DNA of 43,037 bases from Candidatus Tayloriibacteriota bacterium. Its GTDB lineage: Bacteria; Patescibacteriota; Minisyncoccia; Phycocordibacterales; JACOZD01. Shown piece after piece: positions 1 to 13,053 of this stretch (position 1 is its first letter; every line of letters starts with the position of its first letter). Below the pieces are notes generated by a model. That model saw only the letters and a program-made list of their open reading frames with translations, had not been told where the DNA came from and searched no databases. Made by a program: the position numbers and the translations under genes. The stretch lies in the NCBI GenBank assembly GCA_016181525.1, contig JACOZD010000002.1:1-43037 (forward strand). The letters run 5' to 3'.

Positions 1-37
1 ACTTGTAAAATGCATAACAAAATAATATCCTAAAGGT

Positions 38-208
38 ATGGCTAAAGCACCAAAAACACCAGTTTTTTTTATAGCAACTAAGACAAGGAAAGAACCTGTT
101 GTTGTAAACTTCTACACCAAAAATGGAAAGTTGGTTTCATTTAATGCTGTTCAGAAAGTGAAAACTAAGACAGGCGTGAATTTTTACGCAAAGCGACCAA
201 AGCGCTGA
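38..208 (+). CDS. small basic hypothetical protein (56 aa, not in ORF track)
   Basis: ATG at 38 after AAAGG, open to TGA at 206-208, which overlaps the next ATG (TGATG coupling); MAKAPKTPVFFIATKTRKEP... Confidence 0.6.
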   Translation: MAKAPKTPVFFIATKTRKEPVVVNFYTKNGKLVSFNAVQKVKTKTGVNFYAKRPKR

Positions 209-573
209 TGTCGAAGAAACAATCTCTCACTTCCATAGATTTCGACTTTGGAGTTGGTAAAATCATTCCTGCAACACAAGAAGCTTTTAGTGATGAAGGG
301 TTTGACGTGCAAGTAAGGAAAACAGAAAAAGAATCCTTGTCCATTTTTAAGAGTACACTTGGAACTGAGATTGATTCCAAGCTTACGAGTAATGAACTGT
401 TTCCCACTGATGGGGAAGTATTTTTATTTATTGTTCAAAGAGTTCCGCAAGATTTTGCTTACTGTGCTGTAAAGCGATTGAGCTCTTCTCAAGATGTTGA
501 TGCACTTAAGATTTCAGGTTTAGAGCGCTCTGTTACTATGTTTCAAGAGCTCAAGAATAAAAAAATTCTCTAA
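208..573 (+). CDS. hypothetical protein
   Basis: 121 aa ORF translationally coupled to the upstream ORF; no motif recognised. Confidence 0.6.
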   Translation: MSKKQSLTSIDFDFGVGKIIPATQEAFSDEGFDVQVRKTEKESLSIFKSTLGTEIDSKLTSNELFPTDGEVFLFIVQRVPQDFAYCAVKRLSSSQDVDALKISGLERSVTMFQELKNKKIL

Positions 574-705
574 ATCAAGGGAGCTTTCGCCGCTCTTTCT
601 TGCGGCGAAGTGCGCGCGCATGGGAGGTGGGTGAGAAGCGAATACTTGGAGCTTCGCAAGGCCGGAGCGCGGCGGCGCGAGGAGGGGTCGCGGGCTACAA
701 AAAAG

Positions 706-734
706 TTGACATAAAACAGTGACCATGCTAATGT
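706..734 (+). promoter_or_regulatory. sigma70-type promoter upstream of the Cas7-like gene
   Basis: TTGACA (706-711), 17 bp spacer, TGc-TAATGT (729-734). Confidence 0.55.
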
Positions 735-789
735 ATTTTTGTTGATAGGGTGTACCTATCAATAAGAGTCTTAATCAAGGCTTTTTTCA

Positions 790-817
790 TTGACAACAGA
801 ATATTGACAACAGAATA
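790..817 (+). repeat. tandem 14 bp direct repeat TTGACAACAGAATA x2
   Basis: Exact copies at 790-803 and 804-817 in the leader of the Cas7-like gene. Confidence 0.8.
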
Positions 818-863
818 CAGGTAATAACGCCTTGAGCATGGCCTGAAAAAGCTCTGTTCTAAA

Positions 864-1571
864 GTGTGGAAAGGTAAGTTAGCTATGAAGATACGTGCGC
901 TACTCGTGGGGGTTGCCCCGCTTCTCATCAATCGAATGACACCGGACACGCTCGAAGGTCTCCGGACCAAGGTCCATAAGCCAAAAGCCAAGGATCTCTC
1001 GCCGAAGCAGGAAGCGATTGGCAAGATCTATCGGAAGGACGGCGACAAAGGGCCAATGGGCATTCCGACCTTGAATCTGCTTGCCGCTATCAAAGCGGCA
1101 GGACGGTTCCATAAGTTCGATGGCAAGAAAGCGGTCTCGACCGCCGAGGGCACCTTGCTCTATTCGTTCCTCTCGATTGAGGATGAGTTCCTGCCGTTCG
1201 CGAATAATAATACCAAGGGAGAAATCCAGTGGGAAGCCGACATGCGTCGGGGAACCTGCATGGACATCGCCGTTTGCATTGTTCGGCCGAAGTTCAAAAA
1301 TTGGTCGCTCGACGTCACCTTCCAGGTTGACGGGAAGCAGGTCAAAGAAGGTCTCATCCGTCAACTCGTGGATACCGCTGGCTCCAAGGCCGGCCTCTGC
1401 GACTTCCGTCCGAACAAGGGCGGACCCTTCGGCCGTTTTGCGGTCGAGAAGTGGGAAGTGACGATGGAAGAATCGGACAAGCAGGGCGGGTATTCGGAAG
1501 AAGTCGAAGAGTCAGAGCCATCTGGTAATGGTCCGAATCGTCTCGAGAAACTTGAGACGGCGCGAGCGTAA
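864..1571 (+). CDS. Cas7/RAMP-like RNA-binding protein (likely start ATG 885)
   Basis: RAMP-like motif order: N-terminal strand LxGxxPLL, IPxxNLxAAIxxA, RPxFxxW strand, helix ending in AG, and C-terminal Gly-rich loop GLCDFRPNKGGPFGRFAV; acidic tail; directly followed by a structured array. Confidence 0.75.
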   Translation: MWKGKLAMKIRALLVGVAPLLINRMTPDTLEGLRTKVHKPKAKDLSPKQEAIGKIYRKDGDKGPMGIPTLNLLAAIKAAGRFHKFDGKKAVSTAEGTLLYSFLSIEDEFLPFANNNTKGEIQWEADMRRGTCMDIAVCIVRPKFKNWSLDVTFQVDGKQVKEGLIRQLVDTAGSKAGLCDFRPNKGGPFGRFAVEKWEVTMEESDKQGGYSEEVEESEPSGNGPNRLEKLETARA

Positions 1572-1572
1572 G

Positions 1573-2273
1573 TATTTACTTGCGGTGTCTGCGTGTCTTG
1601 TGCTAGTCTACGGTAAGATGCGGTTCTCTACTGATGCCGCGGAGTGAAAAATCTCCGCGGCAAGATTTCCGTTTTGTTCTTTGTCGCCAGGTCCTGTTCG
1701 CTCGAGTTAAGTTGGTTTCTGCTCGTTACGGCACGGTAACCTTCAGTACGGCCCCCGCCCCTTTTTTGAAAAAGGGGCGGGGGAGAATTTCAAAATCTGT
1801 TTTTTTATTCCGGTTGAGTAACCCGTTCTCCGCTGGACCGGAGCACGGTGAAGTTCATTCCACTAATGGGCGAGAGAGTTTAACTCTCTCGCCAGAATTT
1901 CCGGTTCGGTTTGTTCGGCCAAACTATCCTGCGGTTCTCTGGCCTGCACTAAACAAATCCGAACTACGCGGCTGGCATTCTCTTGAATGCCAGCCATTTG
2001 ATTTTTTGTCATAAAAGTTTTTTAAGTTATCTCTCGCGGTAAGGTGCGTTTTTGTTCTCTTTCCCAGAGTTTGGTTTTCCATCCTACAGTCTTCTTTTTC
2101 TACAGGGCACAAGGTGAGAAACTTTGTGCGATTTACTTTTTATGTTTTTAATGTAAGGTAAGACTGGATCAGGCGTACCAACGTGTGCTTGAGTGTGCTC
2201 CACTCCTCTGCGGCCGACTCAGGTTGGGTATTGTAGGGATTCTCTATGGGGCGAGGAATGAAAATTCCTCGCC
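1573..2273 (+). ncRNA. array 1: six putative guide-like RNA units with 5-nt periodicity, each ending in a hairpin
   Basis: Units at about 1573-1662, 1663-1783, 1784-1893, 1894-1995, 1996-2129, 2130-2273. Hairpins at 1635-1662, 1752-1783, 1869-1893, 1970-1995, 2107-2129, 2250-2273. A pyrimidine falls at every 5th base of the unit body (e.g. 1672,1677...1752 all Y). RNA status is inferred. Confidence 0.8.
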
Positions 2274-2283
2274 ATTTTTGTAT

Positions 2284-2312
2284 TTGACAGTTTGTGATAC
2301 TCATGCTAGTAT
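2284..2312 (+). promoter_or_regulatory. sigma70-type promoter for the small ORF-DinG-array 2 unit
   Basis: TTGACA (2284-2289), 17 bp spacer, TGc-TAGTAT (2307-2312). Confidence 0.65.
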
Positions 2313-2423
2313 CTCAACCAGAAATAGCTCCATAGCTATAGCTATAATCTAGGTGAGTAATCTAGGTTTTTTGACAACACTGAATAATCAAAACACAGAC
2401 AACAAAGAGAAAGGAAATTCCTT

Positions 2424-2747
2424 ATGGGTAAGCATTATGTTGTAACTAGCTCGAGAATACGCCGAAAATCAAAAAAAGAGAAACGTCCTCCGAGCGTAAA
2501 CAAATACGCCCGTTTCGTACCTTCTCGGTCTTCTTTCTACCACTGGTTTGATAAAACTTTTCGCGACCTGCCAATTATTGGTGATCGCGGAGAAGTTCTC
2601 AAGGCGGGCTATCGTGTAACCTTTCATGGACGATTATATGCCCTTATGAAGGATACATCAATTCCGCAGACAGCACCCTCCATTCCGGGCACAGCAAACA
2701 AGTATCAAGGCGTCGGGCGATTCAAGTTGGTTGCCCGCCTTGATTGA
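2424..2747 (+). CDS. small basic hypothetical protein upstream of DinG
   Basis: 107 aa, AAAGGA RBS, K/R-rich N-terminus, abuts the helicase gene. Confidence 0.65.
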   Translation: MGKHYVVTSSRIRRKSKKEKRPPSVNKYARFVPSRSSFYHWFDKTFRDLPIIGDRGEVLKAGYRVTFHGRLYALMKDTSIPQTAPSIPGTANKYQGVGRFKLVARLD

Positions 2748-4585
2748 AAAAGAAAGGAAACATGCAACATCTGGAACATCTAAAATTATCTCTTTTAGAA
2801 GAGACGTTCCCCACAAGCGCTCTTCGTCGAGCGCCGTGGGCAAGTCAGCGGGAAATGTTTCGCATCATTTCCGAGAATGGCTCGGTCACGATCGAATCTC
2901 CGACAGGAAGCGGAAAAACCGCAGTCGAGTATACGGTCCTCAAAGCCGCAGACTTGAAACGGAAACAACCGCTTTTTCTCATCACTCCGAATAAAACATT
3001 GGTGGAGCAAATCCGCCAAGAGTTTCCGGATCTCAAAATCGCTCTTGGGCGAAACGAGCATCCATGTTTCTACTATCAGGACAAGTTGCCAGCTGATAAA
3101 CAGCCAATGGCAGACGAAATTCCATGCTCGCTTCTTAAAGACTGCCCTCATCGGGTGGACCAAGAGACAGGCAAAACTTTCGTAGAGGGAGCGATCCCAT
3201 GTCCGTATTTGAAGCAAAAGTTTGAGGCGAAGCAGGGCGGCATCGTTCTCTCCACCATAGCTTTCTATCTCTTCACTCAGCTTTTTAGCAAGGAGTGGGA
3301 GCAACCAGAAGTACTTGTCATTGACGAAGCACATAGGATGGCTGAAGTGGTGAGAAATGCACTCTCGTACGAAATCACTGATTGGCATTTACGAAAGTCG
3401 GTGGAACTTCTGCGAGAAATTGGTGCGGAGGAAGCAGAGTTGCTTCACGACTTCTACAAGAAGTTGGTTCATATAATCAAGTCAAAACCTGCGCATGAAC
3501 GAACCATGCTGAATGCCCGAGAAATTAGAGCGCTCATGGAAAAGCTTGAGGTCATAGATCAATCAGGACTCTTGCGCAAGCTTGAAAAGGCGGTGCGGGA
3601 GAAAGTGATTGATGTTGTCGAGAAACGGGAGACTCTGAAGAAGCTTGAAGTAGTGGTGAAGGATCTTCGCCGCTATCTACGCTCATTCGAGTATTCGCTA
3701 CCTGACGAAAATCGGCACGCGCTCAACTACACCTATGCCTTCTACAAAGACAAAGAGGAGAAAGGAGAGAAAGAGCATGTGCAGTATCGACTGGTGGTTA
3801 AATGCTACTATGTCGCACCCATCATCAAAAAAATTATGGGCAAGACAACGGTGGCTCTCTCGGCGACAATCGGAGATGATGAAGTGTTTGGCCATGAGAC
3901 GGGAATACGGAATCCATGTTTCAGTTTGGAATCCAATTTTCCGTCCGATAATGCTCGACTCTTTATGCCGACCGATACTCTCAATCTCGCGAAAAACGAG
4001 CGTGGTAATCGCGATTTACCAAAGAGTATCAGGATGGTGGCTCGGGCTTGCAAACGGTTGAGAGATAAAGGACACCGAAGTCTTTTCGTCACTATCTCTA
4101 ACCTTGAACGTGATAAGTTCATGATGATGGCAGAGGAGGAAGGTCTAAAGGCCATAAGTTACGGCAACGGCGTAACTGCAAAGGAAGCGGCTATCCGTTT
4201 CCGTGACGGCGAGGGTGATGTTCTCTGCGGCACGGCTTCAAACTATGCCGAAGGGGTGGATTTGCCAAAACAGATCGCACCAGTCATATTCTTTCTCCGA
4301 CCCGGGTATCCCAATCCTAAGGATCCGGGAACACAGTTTGAAGAAGAACGCTTCGGCGGCAGTCGGTGGGCGCTGTGGAATTGGCGGGTGATGATCCAGG
4401 CACTTCAAGTCCGCGGTCGGAACATTCGTTCTACCAAGGATCTGGGGGTGACGATATTCATATCACAGCAATTCCGGCGGTTCGTTCACGCATCACTTCC
4501 CAAATGGCTCGAGAAAGCATATGTCAATGACCGTACGTTTGACGAGTGTATTTCCCAAACGGAGGAGTTGTTAGGGGAAAAATAG
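2744..4585 (+). CDS. DinG/XPD-family SF2 helicase (likely start ATG 2762)
   Basis: Walker A ESPTGSGKT, VIDEAH, LSAT, AEGVDLP, QVRGRNIR; four Cys (HPC, IPC, DCPH, PCPY) consistent with an Fe-S site; AAAGGA RBS before ATG 2762. Confidence 0.9.
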   Translation: MKKKGNMQHLEHLKLSLLEETFPTSALRRAPWASQREMFRIISENGSVTIESPTGSGKTAVEYTVLKAADLKRKQPLFLITPNKTLVEQIRQEFPDLKIALGRNEHPCFYYQDKLPADKQPMADEIPCSLLKDCPHRVDQETGKTFVEGAIPCPYLKQKFEAKQGGIVLSTIAFYLFTQLFSKEWEQPEVLVIDEAHRMAEVVRNALSYEITDWHLRKSVELLREIGAEEAELLHDFYKKLVHIIKSKPAHERTMLNAREIRALMEKLEVIDQSGLLRKLEKAVREKVIDVVEKRETLKKLEVVVKDLRRYLRSFEYSLPDENRHALNYTYAFYKDKEEKGEKEHVQYRLVVKCYYVAPIIKKIMGKTTVALSATIGDDEVFGHETGIRNPCFSLESNFPSDNARLFMPTDTLNLAKNERGNRDLPKSIRMVARACKRLRDKGHRSLFVTISNLERDKFMMMAEEEGLKAISYGNGVTAKEAAIRFRDGEGDVLCGTASNYAEGVDLPKQIAPVIFFLRPGYPNPKDPGTQFEEERFGGSRWALWNWRVMIQALQVRGRNIRSTKDLGVTIFISQQFRRFVHASLPKWLEKAYVNDRTFDECISQTEELLGEK

Positions 4586-5261
4586 TTTCAGCTGCCCTTC
4601 GGCATTCTTGCGTGAAGTCGCGTAGTCCGAGCTCGCGTGCGCTTGTCTGCCGTTCAGTGCAGTTCGCTAAAGTACGGGCTGAGCATTTTCGAAAGAAAAT
4701 GCTCAGCTAAAATTTCCGGTGCAGTATAAGTCGCGCATCCTGCGCTGCTGTCCGGTGAAGTCCGCTAGCCATATGCTAGTGTGTCGTTCGGTGCCGAGTA
4801 ACATTTCGATGTCACTCGGCTAGAATTTCTGAAGTACACCAGTCTATGTTGCGGCGTTTTGTAGTTTGCTTGGCTAGACTGTCGTGCACTGCAGTAGCAG
4901 TACGGGCATAGCACCACGCTGTGGTGCTAGGCAAAAATTTCCCGTGTGGTAACGTAACCTTCCGTATGCTGTGTTAAGGTGCTACATGGTACACTCCGGA
5001 GCCAAGCTTTTGATTTAAAGGCTTGGCTATAATTTACTTCTGCTCCGTGTGCCTTGCTAGTCTCGGCCCCGGTCAGGTGGAGGTGTTGTCCAGTGCGATG
5101 CAGTTCGCCAGACTACGGCCTCGCCCTTTCGCGGAGAAAGGGCGAGGGAAATTTCTCTTGTTCTTTCAGTTCGGTTCGTTGCTCTGTGGTATAGTGGCCT
5201 GTGCTATGTTATACCAAGCTTGTCTACGGACGCGCGTATCAGAAATGGTACGCGCTTTTTT
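4586..5261 (+). ncRNA. array 2: six putative guide-like RNA units with 5-nt periodicity, each ending in a hairpin
   Basis: Units at 4586-4707, 4708-4820, 4821-4932, 4933-5028, 5029-5147, 5148-5255. Hairpins at 4678-4707 (GAAA loop), 4793-4820 (TTCG loop), 4906-4932, 5000-5028, 5119-5147, 5232-5255 followed by T6. Y at 4593,4598...4673 (17/17). RNA status is inferred. Confidence 0.8.
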
Positions 5262-5402
5262 CTTTGTCTGAAAAGGAGCCCCGCCACATCCTTTCTCCTC
5301 CCTTGTGGCGTGGCATATGTGCGCGGTGGGTAGGAAGGCAAGCACATACAAGAATGAGTCCTCGGACATTAAACAGGGCTTTTTTGTTTATTTTGAGTGA
5401 GC

Positions 5403-5431
5403 TTGACTTTTGTTGAAACTTACAATATATT
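5403..5431 (+). promoter_or_regulatory. sigma70-type promoter
   Basis: TTGACT, 17 bp spacer, TATATT. Confidence 0.5.
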
Positions 5432-5506
5432 TATTGAGACACTTGAGTAAGGTGCTCAAGGGTGCTCAAGCAAGAAATTGTACCTTGAAAGGAGAGATGA
5501 TCCTCG

Positions 5507-6292
5507 ATGAGATATTTTTCTGCTCGTCGGCGAATACAAGAGGAGCTTCAATACCTCCTTAAGTTTCTGACCGAGTACTTCGGAACAGAAATTCAGACAG
5601 TCGTTGTCTACGGAAGTTTCCTTAGGTGGTCATTCCGTAAATACAACGATGTGGATGTAGCAATCATTTTGCGTGATTCTCCAGAGTGGCGATGGAGCAG
5701 TTCAGAGTCCTTCTGGGATGCGCGAGATGATTCGCCATATCGTCAGAATTTCTTCCAAAAGCTCGAGCAGTTTCTCAAGGAGTTGGGTGCTTCTCGTCCT
5801 TACGACATCAAGGTCTTTACTACGCGTGACCTTGTATTGTTGGCAGAGTTCCAGGAACGCGTAGTCCACACCAGGGGGAACCTGGCACCGAGTATCAGAG
5901 CTGGGAAAGTCATTTTCCAGCGAAAGGAGAACGACATGGCGGAAATGAAGAAGAAACACAGGAGCTTCGTGGAGTTCCTGGACCGAGAGCTCCCGGCTCT
6001 CGGCATGACACACTGGTACAGAAGCAACGACGACTACGGTATCGGGATCGACTACCACGACATCGGCAAAGTCGTGACGGTGGAGCATCGCTTCCTGTTC
6101 ATCACTTGGACATCGAAGCGCACCATCACCATCGCGAGTGTGATTGCCGAGCCGGACACGCCGATTCATGGCGGAGCAGAGGATACTCTCCGGCTTCGCG
6201 TGAAGGTTCGTGAGGCAATACCGACGCTTCAGAGATTGGCCGAGAAGTTCGAAGATGCGACCTTCGGACTCAAAGCCGAGCTCATGTACTGA
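5507..6292 (+). CDS. minimal nucleotidyltransferase (Pol beta superfamily) domain plus unknown C-terminal region
   Basis: VVYGSF...NDVDVAIIL motif, later YDIKV and IRAGKVIF; in-frame internal RBS plus ATG at 5936. Confidence 0.75.
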   Translation: MRYFSARRRIQEELQYLLKFLTEYFGTEIQTVVVYGSFLRWSFRKYNDVDVAIILRDSPEWRWSSSESFWDARDDSPYRQNFFQKLEQFLKELGASRPYDIKVFTTRDLVLLAEFQERVVHTRGNLAPSIRAGKVIFQRKENDMAEMKKKHRSFVEFLDRELPALGMTHWYRSNDDYGIGIDYHDIGKVVTVEHRFLFITWTSKRTITIASVIAEPDTPIHGGAEDTLRLRVKVREAIPTLQRLAEKFEDATFGLKAELMY

Positions 6293-6638: not shown

Positions 6639-6947
6639 TTGATGGCGTTAGGACTAAGCTCTGACCTTATTAAGATGGCAGTCAATTTTCGAAAATTGGA
6701 GAGAATTATCAAAGGTTTCGCCAATCACCGCCGCCTGGAAATACTTAATTTGCTTTTACATGAGCCAGAGCTCTCTGTTAGTGAAATATCTGAAAAGACC
6801 AGGACAGAGTATATGAACGCCTCTGACCATATTCGGAGGTTAGCTATTTCTGGTCTTCTTCTCAAACGTAATGATGGTAATATGGTGCGGCACAAATTAA
6901 CCCCTCTTGCCGAATCTATTCTAGAATTTTGCAAAAAACTAGAATAA
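6639..6947 (+). CDS. ArsR/SmtB-family transcriptional regulator (start may be ATG 6675)
   Basis: ANHRRLEILNLL...LSVSEISE...ASDHIRRL...GLL winged-helix pattern. Confidence 0.85.
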   Translation: MMALGLSSDLIKMAVNFRKLERIIKGFANHRRLEILNLLLHEPELSVSEISEKTRTEYMNASDHIRRLAISGLLLKRNDGNMVRHKLTPLAESILEFCKKLE

Positions 6948-12143: not shown

Positions 12144-12258
12144 TTACCATCACCACTAGAGGAAACCAGAGGAAACCGGAGGAAATTTCAACTGGGTAAC
12201 TGAACACGTTCTGGCGGTCTCGGCTTTTCTTTGTTATACTCCCGGTAGACGCGCATAG

Positions 12259-13053
12259 GTGCGTTTGTTCTTTAAGTGTATGAAGATTCTGTCTAAATTG
12301 TTTTCTAATTCAGGAGCGCAGACTACTCTCTTTAGAGAGGACATTCTCAAGGAAATTAAGGAGGGCGGTCTCCAGATTGCTCCCTTCAATCCCGAGCTGG
12401 TCAAGGAGGCCTCAATCGACCTTAGCCTCGGTGAATATTACTTCGAGCAGAACGAGGACTATGAAATGCGGGCCCAGATTGGCGGCCCGCGCTGCCACAA
12501 TCCCTTTGACCAATTCTCCAGAAATTTATGGAAGTGCGACTGTTCGCGGGCCAAACCGGCTCAAATATGCGCCGACGAGCATGATGTCGTGCTGAAGGGT
12601 TTCGACCCGAAGGATTTGGCGGTGGTTATCAAACCCAAGCAGAGCATCCTGTCGGCCAGTCTGGAGTTTGTAAAATTGGGAGAGAGAATCTCTCTCCATC
12701 TTGACGGCCGGTCATCGCCCGCGCGGCTGCTTTTGAGGGCGGCCGGGCCGATGGACTTCATCGACCCCGGCTACGTCGACCCCGTAACCTTTCTTATCAC
12801 CAACCCTTTTGACACCTTGCCGGTTGTCCTTAAGGTCGGTACGCGCCTGGTTCAGTTTGAAGTCAAAAAGGGCGGCCCTGGTTGCAGCGGCTGCTACGGC
12901 GGTCGAGGCAAGTATTCTTCACCCGTAAGTCTCGAGGAGGCGCAGGCGGCCTGGCAGCCGGAAATGATGCACTCCAAGATGCATCTCGACCCGGAGGCCT
13001 TCCCCAGTATGACCGTTTACCCAGATAAACATATAACCAGCCGCGCGGTCTAA
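12259..13053 (+). CDS. dcd: dCTP deaminase-like protein (divergent)
   Basis: ASIDLSLG, GRSSPAR, FIDPGY, LKVGTRLVQ. Confidence 0.75.
   Translation: MRLFFKCMKILSKLFSNSGAQTTLFREDILKEIKEGGLQIAPFNPELVKEASIDLSLGEYYFEQNEDYEMRAQIGGPRCHNPFDQFSRNLWKCDCSRAKPAQICADEHDVVLKGFDPKDLAVVIKPKQSILSASLEFVKLGERISLHLDGRSSPARLLLRAAGPMDFIDPGYVDPVTFLITNPFDTLPVVLKVGTRLVQFEVKKGGPGCSGCYGGRGKYSSPVSLEEAQAAWQPEMMHSKMHLDPEAFPSMTVYPDKHITSRAV

Follow-up and report, generated by a model that had tools for sequence, protein, structure and literature searches.

What the two arrays of five-nucleotide repeats on either side of a helicase gene could be reading is the question raised by the locus described here, which lies at the beginning of contig JACOZD010000002.1 of a Candidatus Tayloriibacteriota bacterium (assembly GCA_016181525.1), in a stretch of 43,037 nucleotides that was analysed as a whole (the window). 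An original prediction, made from the sequence alone, held that two variable bases (NN) in every repeat pair with two bases of a target while a third one is skipped. Our analysis leads to the view, held with a probability of about 0.85, that the stretch represents a VIPR (Viral Interference Programmable Repeat) locus on the chromosome of a member of the Patescibacteria from groundwater, guided by NN with a one-base skip as judged from its homology to the VIPR system of phage SUSP1. Membership in VIPR follows from protein homology, repeat architecture, and the accessory gene together with the gene order, and the presence of the flanking vipr and helicase genes explains the repeats. The locus is thus a chromosomal, helicase-linked form of VIPR with relaxed repeats, and its code has already been published and tested elsewhere. 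The gapped code conceived earlier therefore corresponds to the published VIPR code, reached independently, and the code of VIPR is recoverable from sequence alone by careful reading.

VIPR systems were described in 2026 (bioRxiv 10.64898/2026.04.26.720920, 10.64898/2026.04.26.720927), and a further preprint dates from the same year (10.64898/2026.10.15.759431). According to the text of the first of them (10.64898/2026.04.26.720920), a VIPR locus combines vipr with an accessory gene (vap) and has genes for vrRNAs on its flanks. Such an RNA measures about 100 nt, with YNNGG repeated 9-16 times ahead of a structured tail at the 3' end. It is the NN bases that define the target in double-stranded DNA, one target base being skipped per repeat; the skipped bases are overwhelmingly codon wobble positions, and such skipping would defeat synonymous escape. 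Seven VIPR types are distinguished there, with predicted nucleases or helicases in types III-V, alternative repeats (NNNGG, YNNNG, NNNNG) are reported for some systems, and 25.5% of VIPR systems are given as chromosomal in a survey comprising 667 of them. The words 'Patescibacteria', 'DinG' and 'CPR' are absent from the main text of the same preprint. The text of the second one (10.64898/2026.04.26.720927) describes one Vipr protomer per repeat, with the first G of the GGY motif (G1) of SUSP1 contacted by H17 and D177, the second (G2) by R138 and W178, and the pyrimidine (Y3) by R179 and its neighbours, while the thumb of Vipr displaces the guide GGY and one target base.

In regard to the protein evidence, the gene preceding the left array has no match in Pfam, PADLOC or NCBIfam. 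A profile of 26 homologues compared with the PDB matched a single solved structure, 36pp_D, named 'SUSP1 Vipr protein' (E 2.6e-10), and an hhalign comparison with the 195-aa SUSP1 protein (KT454805.2) gave a probability of 97.65% and an E value of 2.6e-12 over 173 columns, covering residues 1-188 of 195. The protein is also matched in full length by PHROG 4652, a phage family of unassigned function (E 7.3e-18). When its AlphaFold2 (AF2) model (pLDDT 83.7) was compared with the PDB by Foldseek, the best matches were type VII Cas7 and Csm3, with E values from 3e-6 to 5e-4 and identities of 12-17%. Judging from these comparisons, the gene is a homologue of the SUSP1 phage Vipr, which belongs to a family of minimal RAMP proteins with an RRM core, a G-loop and a thumb. 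Four of the five mapped residues that contact GGY in SUSP1 have like residues at the aligned positions (R138 corresponds to R134, D177 to D173, W178 to F174 and R179 to R175), and all four vary hardly or not at all among the 26 homologues. By analogy with the phage protein, Vipr should polymerise along the repeat RNAs.

The 12 periodic units on which the original prediction was built are indeed present at the positions given for them, as established by the hairpin-anchored register, autocorrelation and column counts. Each of them is about 96-144 nt long and consists of a body of 10-20 pentamers of the form Y-N-N-n-S, a GC-rich hairpin on its 3' side with a stem of 9-14 bp (called with at most one mismatch allowed) and a loop of 3-6 nt, and a short A/T-rich junction, usually AAUUUC. 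With 10-20 pentamers, every body exceeds the minimum of 4 repeats asked of a vrRNA. The structured 3' tail is found in 12 of 12 units, and its hairpin structure is kept while its sequence is different in every unit. The pentamer preceding the hairpin is mostly UACGG and the first pentamer is often UCCGG; both look like parts of a handle rather than guide sequence. The final unit, U12, ends with a hairpin and a T-run terminator, and terminator-like tails follow U4, U5 and U6. When the register of units 2 and 7 was fixed by the 3' hairpin alone, a pyrimidine was found at position 1 in 17/17 pentamers of unit 2 (1667-1751) and 18/18 pentamers of unit 7 (4588-4677), and G or C at position 5 in 14/17 and 18/18, respectively; by our own arithmetic, the probability of 35 pyrimidines out of 35 at a background of about 0.55 is near 1e-9.

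Segmentation of all 12 units yielded 182 repeats, from which 13 4-mers and 6-mers (occurring in U1, U5, U8 and U12) were removed, leaving 169 pentamers. Position 1 is T in 141 and C in 26 of these, and position 5 is G in 85 and C in 65, with both columns somewhat inflated, as the segmentation favoured T in the former and G/C in the latter. Positions 2 and 3 are near-uniform (0.02 and 0.09 bits), while position 4 is occupied by G in 69, A in 42, T in 31 and C in 27 pentamers. Accordingly, three positions per repeat (2-4) vary and not two, and the earlier notion of NN as the only variable part did not hold. The bases equivalent to G2 and Y3 (positions 5 and 1) are kept, and the equivalent of G1 (position 4) is not, both in the window and in its relatives. 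The autocorrelation of T in the right array is 0.22, 0.15, 0.13 and 0.15 at lags 5, 10, 15 and 20, and a stricter period-5 caller applied to both strands of the window made seven calls, six of them inside the two arrays. The observed top score was reached by 2/200 shuffles for the left and 0/200 for the right array, which is a partial test only, as the shuffling preserves context. The period-5 structure is real.

The sole call outside the arrays (12151-12185, minus strand) is of the TTTCC/TCCGG type, appears to be a simple tandem repeat and is unlike vrRNA. Junctions that follow the hairpins often resemble -10 boxes (TAGAAT, TAAAAT, TATAAT) followed by TTC, for example at 4821-4826, 4708-4713 and 5029-5034, and the units may thus be transcribed singly rather than cut from one precursor; a promoter scan flagged only one such junction box (4798-4826). 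In the body of unit 4 (1903-1965) the 5' and 3' parts are mutually complementary and form a long predicted stem (z -5.5 for the whole unit), which is not seen in other units, and whole-unit folding found no body structure common to the units. A search of positions 1-5600 against Rfam at E values up to 1 matched no family, hammerhead included, and at the gathering score the whole window contains four tRNAs only.

The second large gene of the locus has as its best match in the defence library the PADLOC model typeIV_DinG PDLC01439 (E 3.5e-43, positions 16-574 of 575), contains the Pfam domains Helicase_C_2, DEAD and DEAD_2, and its translation carries the motifs GSGKT and DEAH and four cysteines (102, 122, 128 and 147) expected for an Fe-S cluster. 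It is, on the basis of these motifs and matches, an intact helicase gene of the DinG/XPD type, and its match to the curated Csf4 model TIGR03117 is weak (27 bits against a cutoff of 400). All parts of the locus are on the plus strand, in the order vipr, six vrRNA genes, small open reading frame (ORF), helicase and six vrRNA genes. Contigs from four DNA runs of one study span the locus with few differences, and they possibly represent the source sample, thus adding no independent support; among the sequencing runs listed as containing the locus there is none of RNA.

The same arrangement is found far beyond this genome. A sample of 401 genomes from the phylum contained 9 with a Vipr homologue, this one included, and a scan of the genome_contigs collection revealed 17 further vipr loci, in sequences with titles that name Nomurabacteria, Taylorbacteria, Paceibacterota, Saccharibacteria, Uhrbacteria, Komeilibacteria and others. 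The helicase adjoins vipr in 8/8 loci of the phylum sample and in 12/17 of the genome_contigs loci, that is, in 20/25. Four of the five loci devoid of the helicase are on contigs that end 0.5-2.6 kb past vipr, and in the remaining one (L036) vipr is flanked by 8 kb in either direction without a helicase. Period-5 arrays are located on the gene strand after vipr and after the helicase in related loci, and the layout vipr-array-helicase-array recurs in 20/25 of them, across many Patescibacteria lineages. Two diverged vipr paralogues, each followed by its own array, were observed in the loci L014 (7495-8130 and 11244-11900) and L026 (1638-2183 and 2800-3357); the tail hairpin of L014 is conserved in sequence. 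Homologous loci (L026, L027 and the protein P0012) also come from bins labelled Woesearchaeota, Pacearchaeota or Planctomycetaceae, which could be due to transfer or to mis-binning of short contigs.

The closest relative, L024, is a locus of a Taylorbacteria metagenome-assembled genome in which Vipr is 83% and the helicase 93% identical at the protein level, with about 79-82% DNA identity of the genes. The arrays of the two loci do not align, save for one guide and short pieces of hairpins. This sole orthologous guide is unit 9 (4821-4932), corresponding to positions ~13293-13400 of L024, and some 80% of its body is the same in both, including a run of four identical pentamers and, by our own count, 22/28 NN bases, while the sequence of the 3' hairpin is wholly different. 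Such a pair suggests that tails turn over, or that guides move between scaffolds. Position 4 differs in 6/14 repeats of the pair and NN in 6/28 bases, a difference that is not significant and gives only a faint indication that position 4 is less constrained than NN. The small ORF that precedes the helicase has a counterpart at the same position in L024 (10463-10807), at 51% identity against 93% for the helicase, and no match in the other 18 loci screened or in Pfam, PADLOC, NCBIfam and PHROGs. It may be a lineage-specific accessory gene.

Based on the SUSP1 system, the following mechanism can be proposed. Each RNA of about 100 nt would be coated by a Vipr filament with one protomer per pentamer, in which Vipr would hold the conserved bases (here n-S-Y, the equivalent of the published G-G-Y) and present the two variable ones. 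These two would pair with double-stranded DNA, with one target base skipped per repeat, and a guide of 12-17 repeats would therefore read the pattern NNxNNx... in its target, as a rule the first two codon positions without the wobble base. The hairpin would serve as a 3' tail or handle. The helicase might act after target binding, as does DinG in type IV-A CRISPR, a role on which the analogy is based. Such a system would probably serve these bacteria by silencing their phages or other mobile elements, or by interfering with them.

If guides are directed to codon positions 1-2, their composition should bear a trace of it, as the original prediction had argued from tallies made by hand. Those tallies were reproduced to within a few counts (TC 21/GA 6 in our segmentation against 20/6 before, AG 9/CT 3 against 8/1, TG 10/CA 6 against 9/4, CC 14/GG 4 against 9/4, AA 16/TT 11 against 15/9, and GT 17/AC 12 against 17/7). 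Likewise, the peptides read from NN (positions 2-3) of units 3, 4, 5 and 7 were recovered exactly, and for unit 12 the segment ITPITAEEE was obtained again, while its first three residues, HFI, fall on 4-mers in the new register. Six strand and phase models were then compared using codon usage tabulated from 210 long ORFs of the genome carrying the locus, and not of a phage. The NN set is best fitted by the antisense of codon positions 1-2, at +16.6 bits over the genomic background, followed by sense 2-3 (+4.5 bits), sense 1-2 (-18.4 bits) and the remaining three models (-39 bits or lower). The Pearson correlation of NN frequencies is 0.75 with antisense 1-2, 0.11 with sense and 0.26 with the genome background. 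After the first and the last pentamer of each unit had been excluded, antisense exceeded sense by 29.5 bits (bootstrap 95% 10.2-50.7) and background by 12.9 bits, in the latter case with a 95% interval that includes zero (-0.5 to 24.9). Antisense is favoured over sense in 11/12 units, and in the relatives by 93/130 clean guides with a sum of +205.7 bits, although the related genomes are not independent. The NN composition therefore fits the antisense of codon positions 1-2, as had been proposed. The remaining elements of the original prediction, namely pairing of NN with two target bases and skipping of the third, the wobble nature of the skipped base and the resistance to synonymous escape, are in agreement with what the text of 10.64898/2026.04.26.720920 states for VIPR, to which the locus belongs by homology.

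Several observations weigh against this interpretation. In a stricter subset of the repeats of relatives, evaluated with the background of this genome, every phased model is worse than background, and antisense is merely the least negative one (-49.5 against -79.9 for sense) and not the best in every locus; part of the composition signal could also arise from constraints on the RNA. Furthermore, searches for natural targets yielded none. In the own genome, with skips of 0-3, the best matches equalled those of 20 shuffles per guide, and 142 guides compared with 606 kb of the loci of relatives gave no excess at skips of 0-2, with at least 80% matched by 4 real against 8 shuffled guides at skip 0, 7 against 5 at skip 1 and 7 against 5 at skip 2; at skip 3, each guide finds only its own gene. 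Five scans of the viral_contigs collection with exact seeds of 9-10 NN and one-base gaps gave two matches in all, both extending at chance level. One of them, of U7, matched NN 1-10 and 3/16 of the rest (23/36 NN bases overall), and the other, of U2, lies in a giant-virus bin (21/34 NN bases), while U6, U11 and the conserved core of U9 had no matches in that collection. The U9 core found six matches in metagenome_contigs (two of them the same sequence), at 21-24 of 28, the best of which (24/28) falls within an ORF resembling a membrane permease, and one more within an SNF2-like helicase; this is about the number expected by chance for 20 fixed bases. Finally, 12 NN of U7 searched with up to 3 mismatches in 301 genomes of the class gave no matches. 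The excess of gapped matches over shuffled controls, which the original prediction had called for, is thus absent from the searched DNA, in searches that were small or based on exact seeds. As exact seeds tolerate no mismatch and the scans were few, this is a weak negative rather than a refutation, and the code at this locus is inferred by homology, given that a natural target was not found. A last point of the same kind concerns the protein, since SUSP1 H17, a G1 contact, is aligned with a near-invariant Asn16. Together with the low share of G at position 4, this means that the reading rule could differ in this clade. Asn16 at the H17 site fits the loss of the first G, and a connection between the loosened position 4 of the RNA and the change in the protein can be inferred, without the same binding mode being proven thereby.

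One way in which the rule could differ is a code in which position 4 pairs as well, giving a contiguous triplet target, or in which the skip has another length. With the first G of GGY free to vary, pairing may extend to position 4 and three bases be read per repeat, in accordance with the variability of position 4 in the window and its relatives, with the His17 to Asn16 replacement, with the published rule having been tested on YNNGG systems only in the text of 10.64898/2026.04.26.720920, and with two repeats of the unit 9 pair that differ at positions 2, 3 and 4 together. The other G1 contact, Asp173, is nevertheless kept, position 4 of the unit 9 pair diverges more than NN, as would be expected for an unread base (if not significantly), and in the seed hits, themselves probably not real targets, position 4 matches at chance (5/18 and 4/17). 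On balance, a different code seems improbable. A bolder version, in which the lost first-G pocket (His to Asn) leaves three free bases, the guide reads either triplets or NN along with a third, tolerant base, and guides are overwhelmingly antisense, is a speculative proposal that we consider unlikely. If true, it would imply either a strand-specific mode of action linked to DinG as a 5'-3' helicase or even the targeting of mRNA, and a system intermediate between VIPR and type IV-A CRISPR.

Two further explanations dispense with guiding altogether. The RNAs could be scaffolds or decoys for the Vipr filament, for example regulating or sequestering the protein or the helicase without base pairing, and the failure of target searches would be consistent with that. 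Yet close relatives retain the scaffold and differ strongly at the variable positions, the NN composition is codon-like and strand-specific, and the homologous system is programmable through NN as stated in the text of 10.64898/2026.04.26.720920, which leaves this explanation with very little probability. The least credible alternative is that of a decaying relic with degenerate, functionless arrays. Hairpin sequences that differ among units, the 4-mers and 6-mers mentioned above and the lost first G could be taken as signs of decay, but both genes are intact with catalytic and contact motifs present, the layout and the repeat form recur across the related loci and lineages listed above, and the hairpin stems retain their length despite the turnover of sequence. 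The VIPR interpretation, with NN guiding and a one-base skip, is the one retained here.

Two other candidates were rejected in the course of the work. A TRAP-like protein-binding RNA, whose type of site consists of triplets with two-base spacers, was dropped on finding the homology to Vipr. Type IV CRISPR was set aside as well, as conserved repeats are absent and Csf genes were not found: neither TRF nor a repeat finder detected CRISPR direct repeats in 1500-5400, where the array bodies have fixed bases every 5 nt, and ORFs 208-573, 864-1571 and 2424-2747 have no PADLOC or NCBIfam match to Csf1, Csf3 or Cas6/Csf5, in a window that begins 884 bases before vipr.

Table 1. Components of the putative VIPR locus, with coordinates in the window.
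Feature	Position	Strand	Description or basis
vipr	885..1571	+	228 aa from ATG 885; frame open from GTG 864; RAMP/Cas7-like
Left vrRNA array, 6 units	1572..2273	+	Hairpins, repeat register, column counts
Left-array units U1, U2, U3	1572-1662, 1663-1783, 1784-1893	+	Period-5 body and 3' GC hairpin
Left-array units U4, U5, U6	1894-1995, 1996-2129, 2130-2273	+	Period-5 body and 3' GC hairpin
Promoter-like site TTGACA-17-TAGTAT with TG	2284..2312	+	10/12 matches; strong, upstream of small ORF
Small basic ORF, 107 aa	2424..2747	+	No family match in the four databases named in the text
DinG/XPD-type Fe-S helicase, 607 aa, vap-like accessory gene	2762..4585	+	PADLOC, Pfam, motifs
Right vrRNA array, 6 units	4586..5255	+	Hairpins, register, column counts; terminator at end
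Right-array units U7, U8, U9	4586-4707, 4708-4820, 4821-4932	+	
Right-array units U10, U11, U12	4933-5028, 5029-5147, 5148-5255	+	

Regarding the surroundings of the locus (Table 1), a 14-nt tandem duplication carrying TTGACA is located at 789-817, in the promoter region (700-830) upstream of vipr, and a very GC-rich stretch (~574-700) lies 3' of ORF 208-573. Directly downstream of the VIPR locus, a nucleotidyltransferase gene (5507-6292, plus strand) shows weak MntA-antitoxin-like and PDC-S09 matches, and the gene at 6639-6947 (plus strand) encodes a winged-helix, ArsR-like regulator that also matches Csa3 models. Together, the two genes may constitute a small module next to the VIPR locus, of toxin-antitoxin type or for defence. 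A dCTP deaminase-like gene (12259-13053, plus strand; Pfam DCD, E 4e-16) follows 7 kb downstream; some members of the DCD fold act in phage defence.

Compared with the SUSP1 system, a type II VIPR of an Escherichia phage, the locus shares a homologous Vipr, protein genes bracketed by vrRNA genes, and units of about 100 nt in which tandem pentamers with two hypervariable bases are followed by a structured 3' tail. On the other hand, the arrays of SUSP1 read as strict YNNGG, while here the repeat is Y-N-N-n-S. The conserved pseudoknot tail reported in the VIPR texts for SUSP1 is replaced by a simple GC hairpin with a sequence that varies per unit, and the accessory gene encodes a 607-aa DinG helicase instead of a small predicted DNA-binding protein. 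The locus resides on a bacterial chromosome and not in a phage genome, and its composition suggests mostly antisense guides, whereas SUSP1 has targets on both strands. As far as their description in the published text goes, VIPR types III-V resemble the locus in having a helicase or nuclease as the accessory, and the YNNNG repeats and chromosomal systems mentioned there suit it as well; relative to YNNNG, the presence of G or C at the last repeat position is a further relaxation. Tests of the VIPR code were made on phage systems whose repeats are strictly YNNGG, and this locus with its approximately 25 relatives places VIPR in the chromosomes of ultra-small Patescibacteria (genomes of 0.5-1 Mb), linked to a DinG helicase in most of the loci and with arrays that are large, at 12 guides or more. 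A relaxed repeat paired with a corresponding change in the protein amounts to a natural experiment on the pocket that sets the code. Should the antisense bias of the guides be real, it would set the system apart in function from those of phages.

Likeness to CRISPR systems is found at two levels. Type IV-A CRISPR-Cas (Csf proteins with DinG/Csf4) also combines a RAMP backbone protein with a DinG-family helicase, and it is thought to silence rather than cut, which is likewise assumed for VIPR. The locus differs from it in having no CRISPR array, a guide period of 5 and not 6, and only a weak match to Csf4. The link to the helicase bears on the proposed descent of CRISPR from VIPR, type IV in particular. 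Filaments of Class 1 Cas7 proteins (Csm3, type VII Cas7) share with Vipr the predicted fold, one protomer per RNA repeat and a thumb that interrupts the duplex at regular intervals, at the low sequence identity given above; the spacers of CRISPR RNAs (crRNAs) have no internal fixed bases, and 5 of every 6 of their bases pair.

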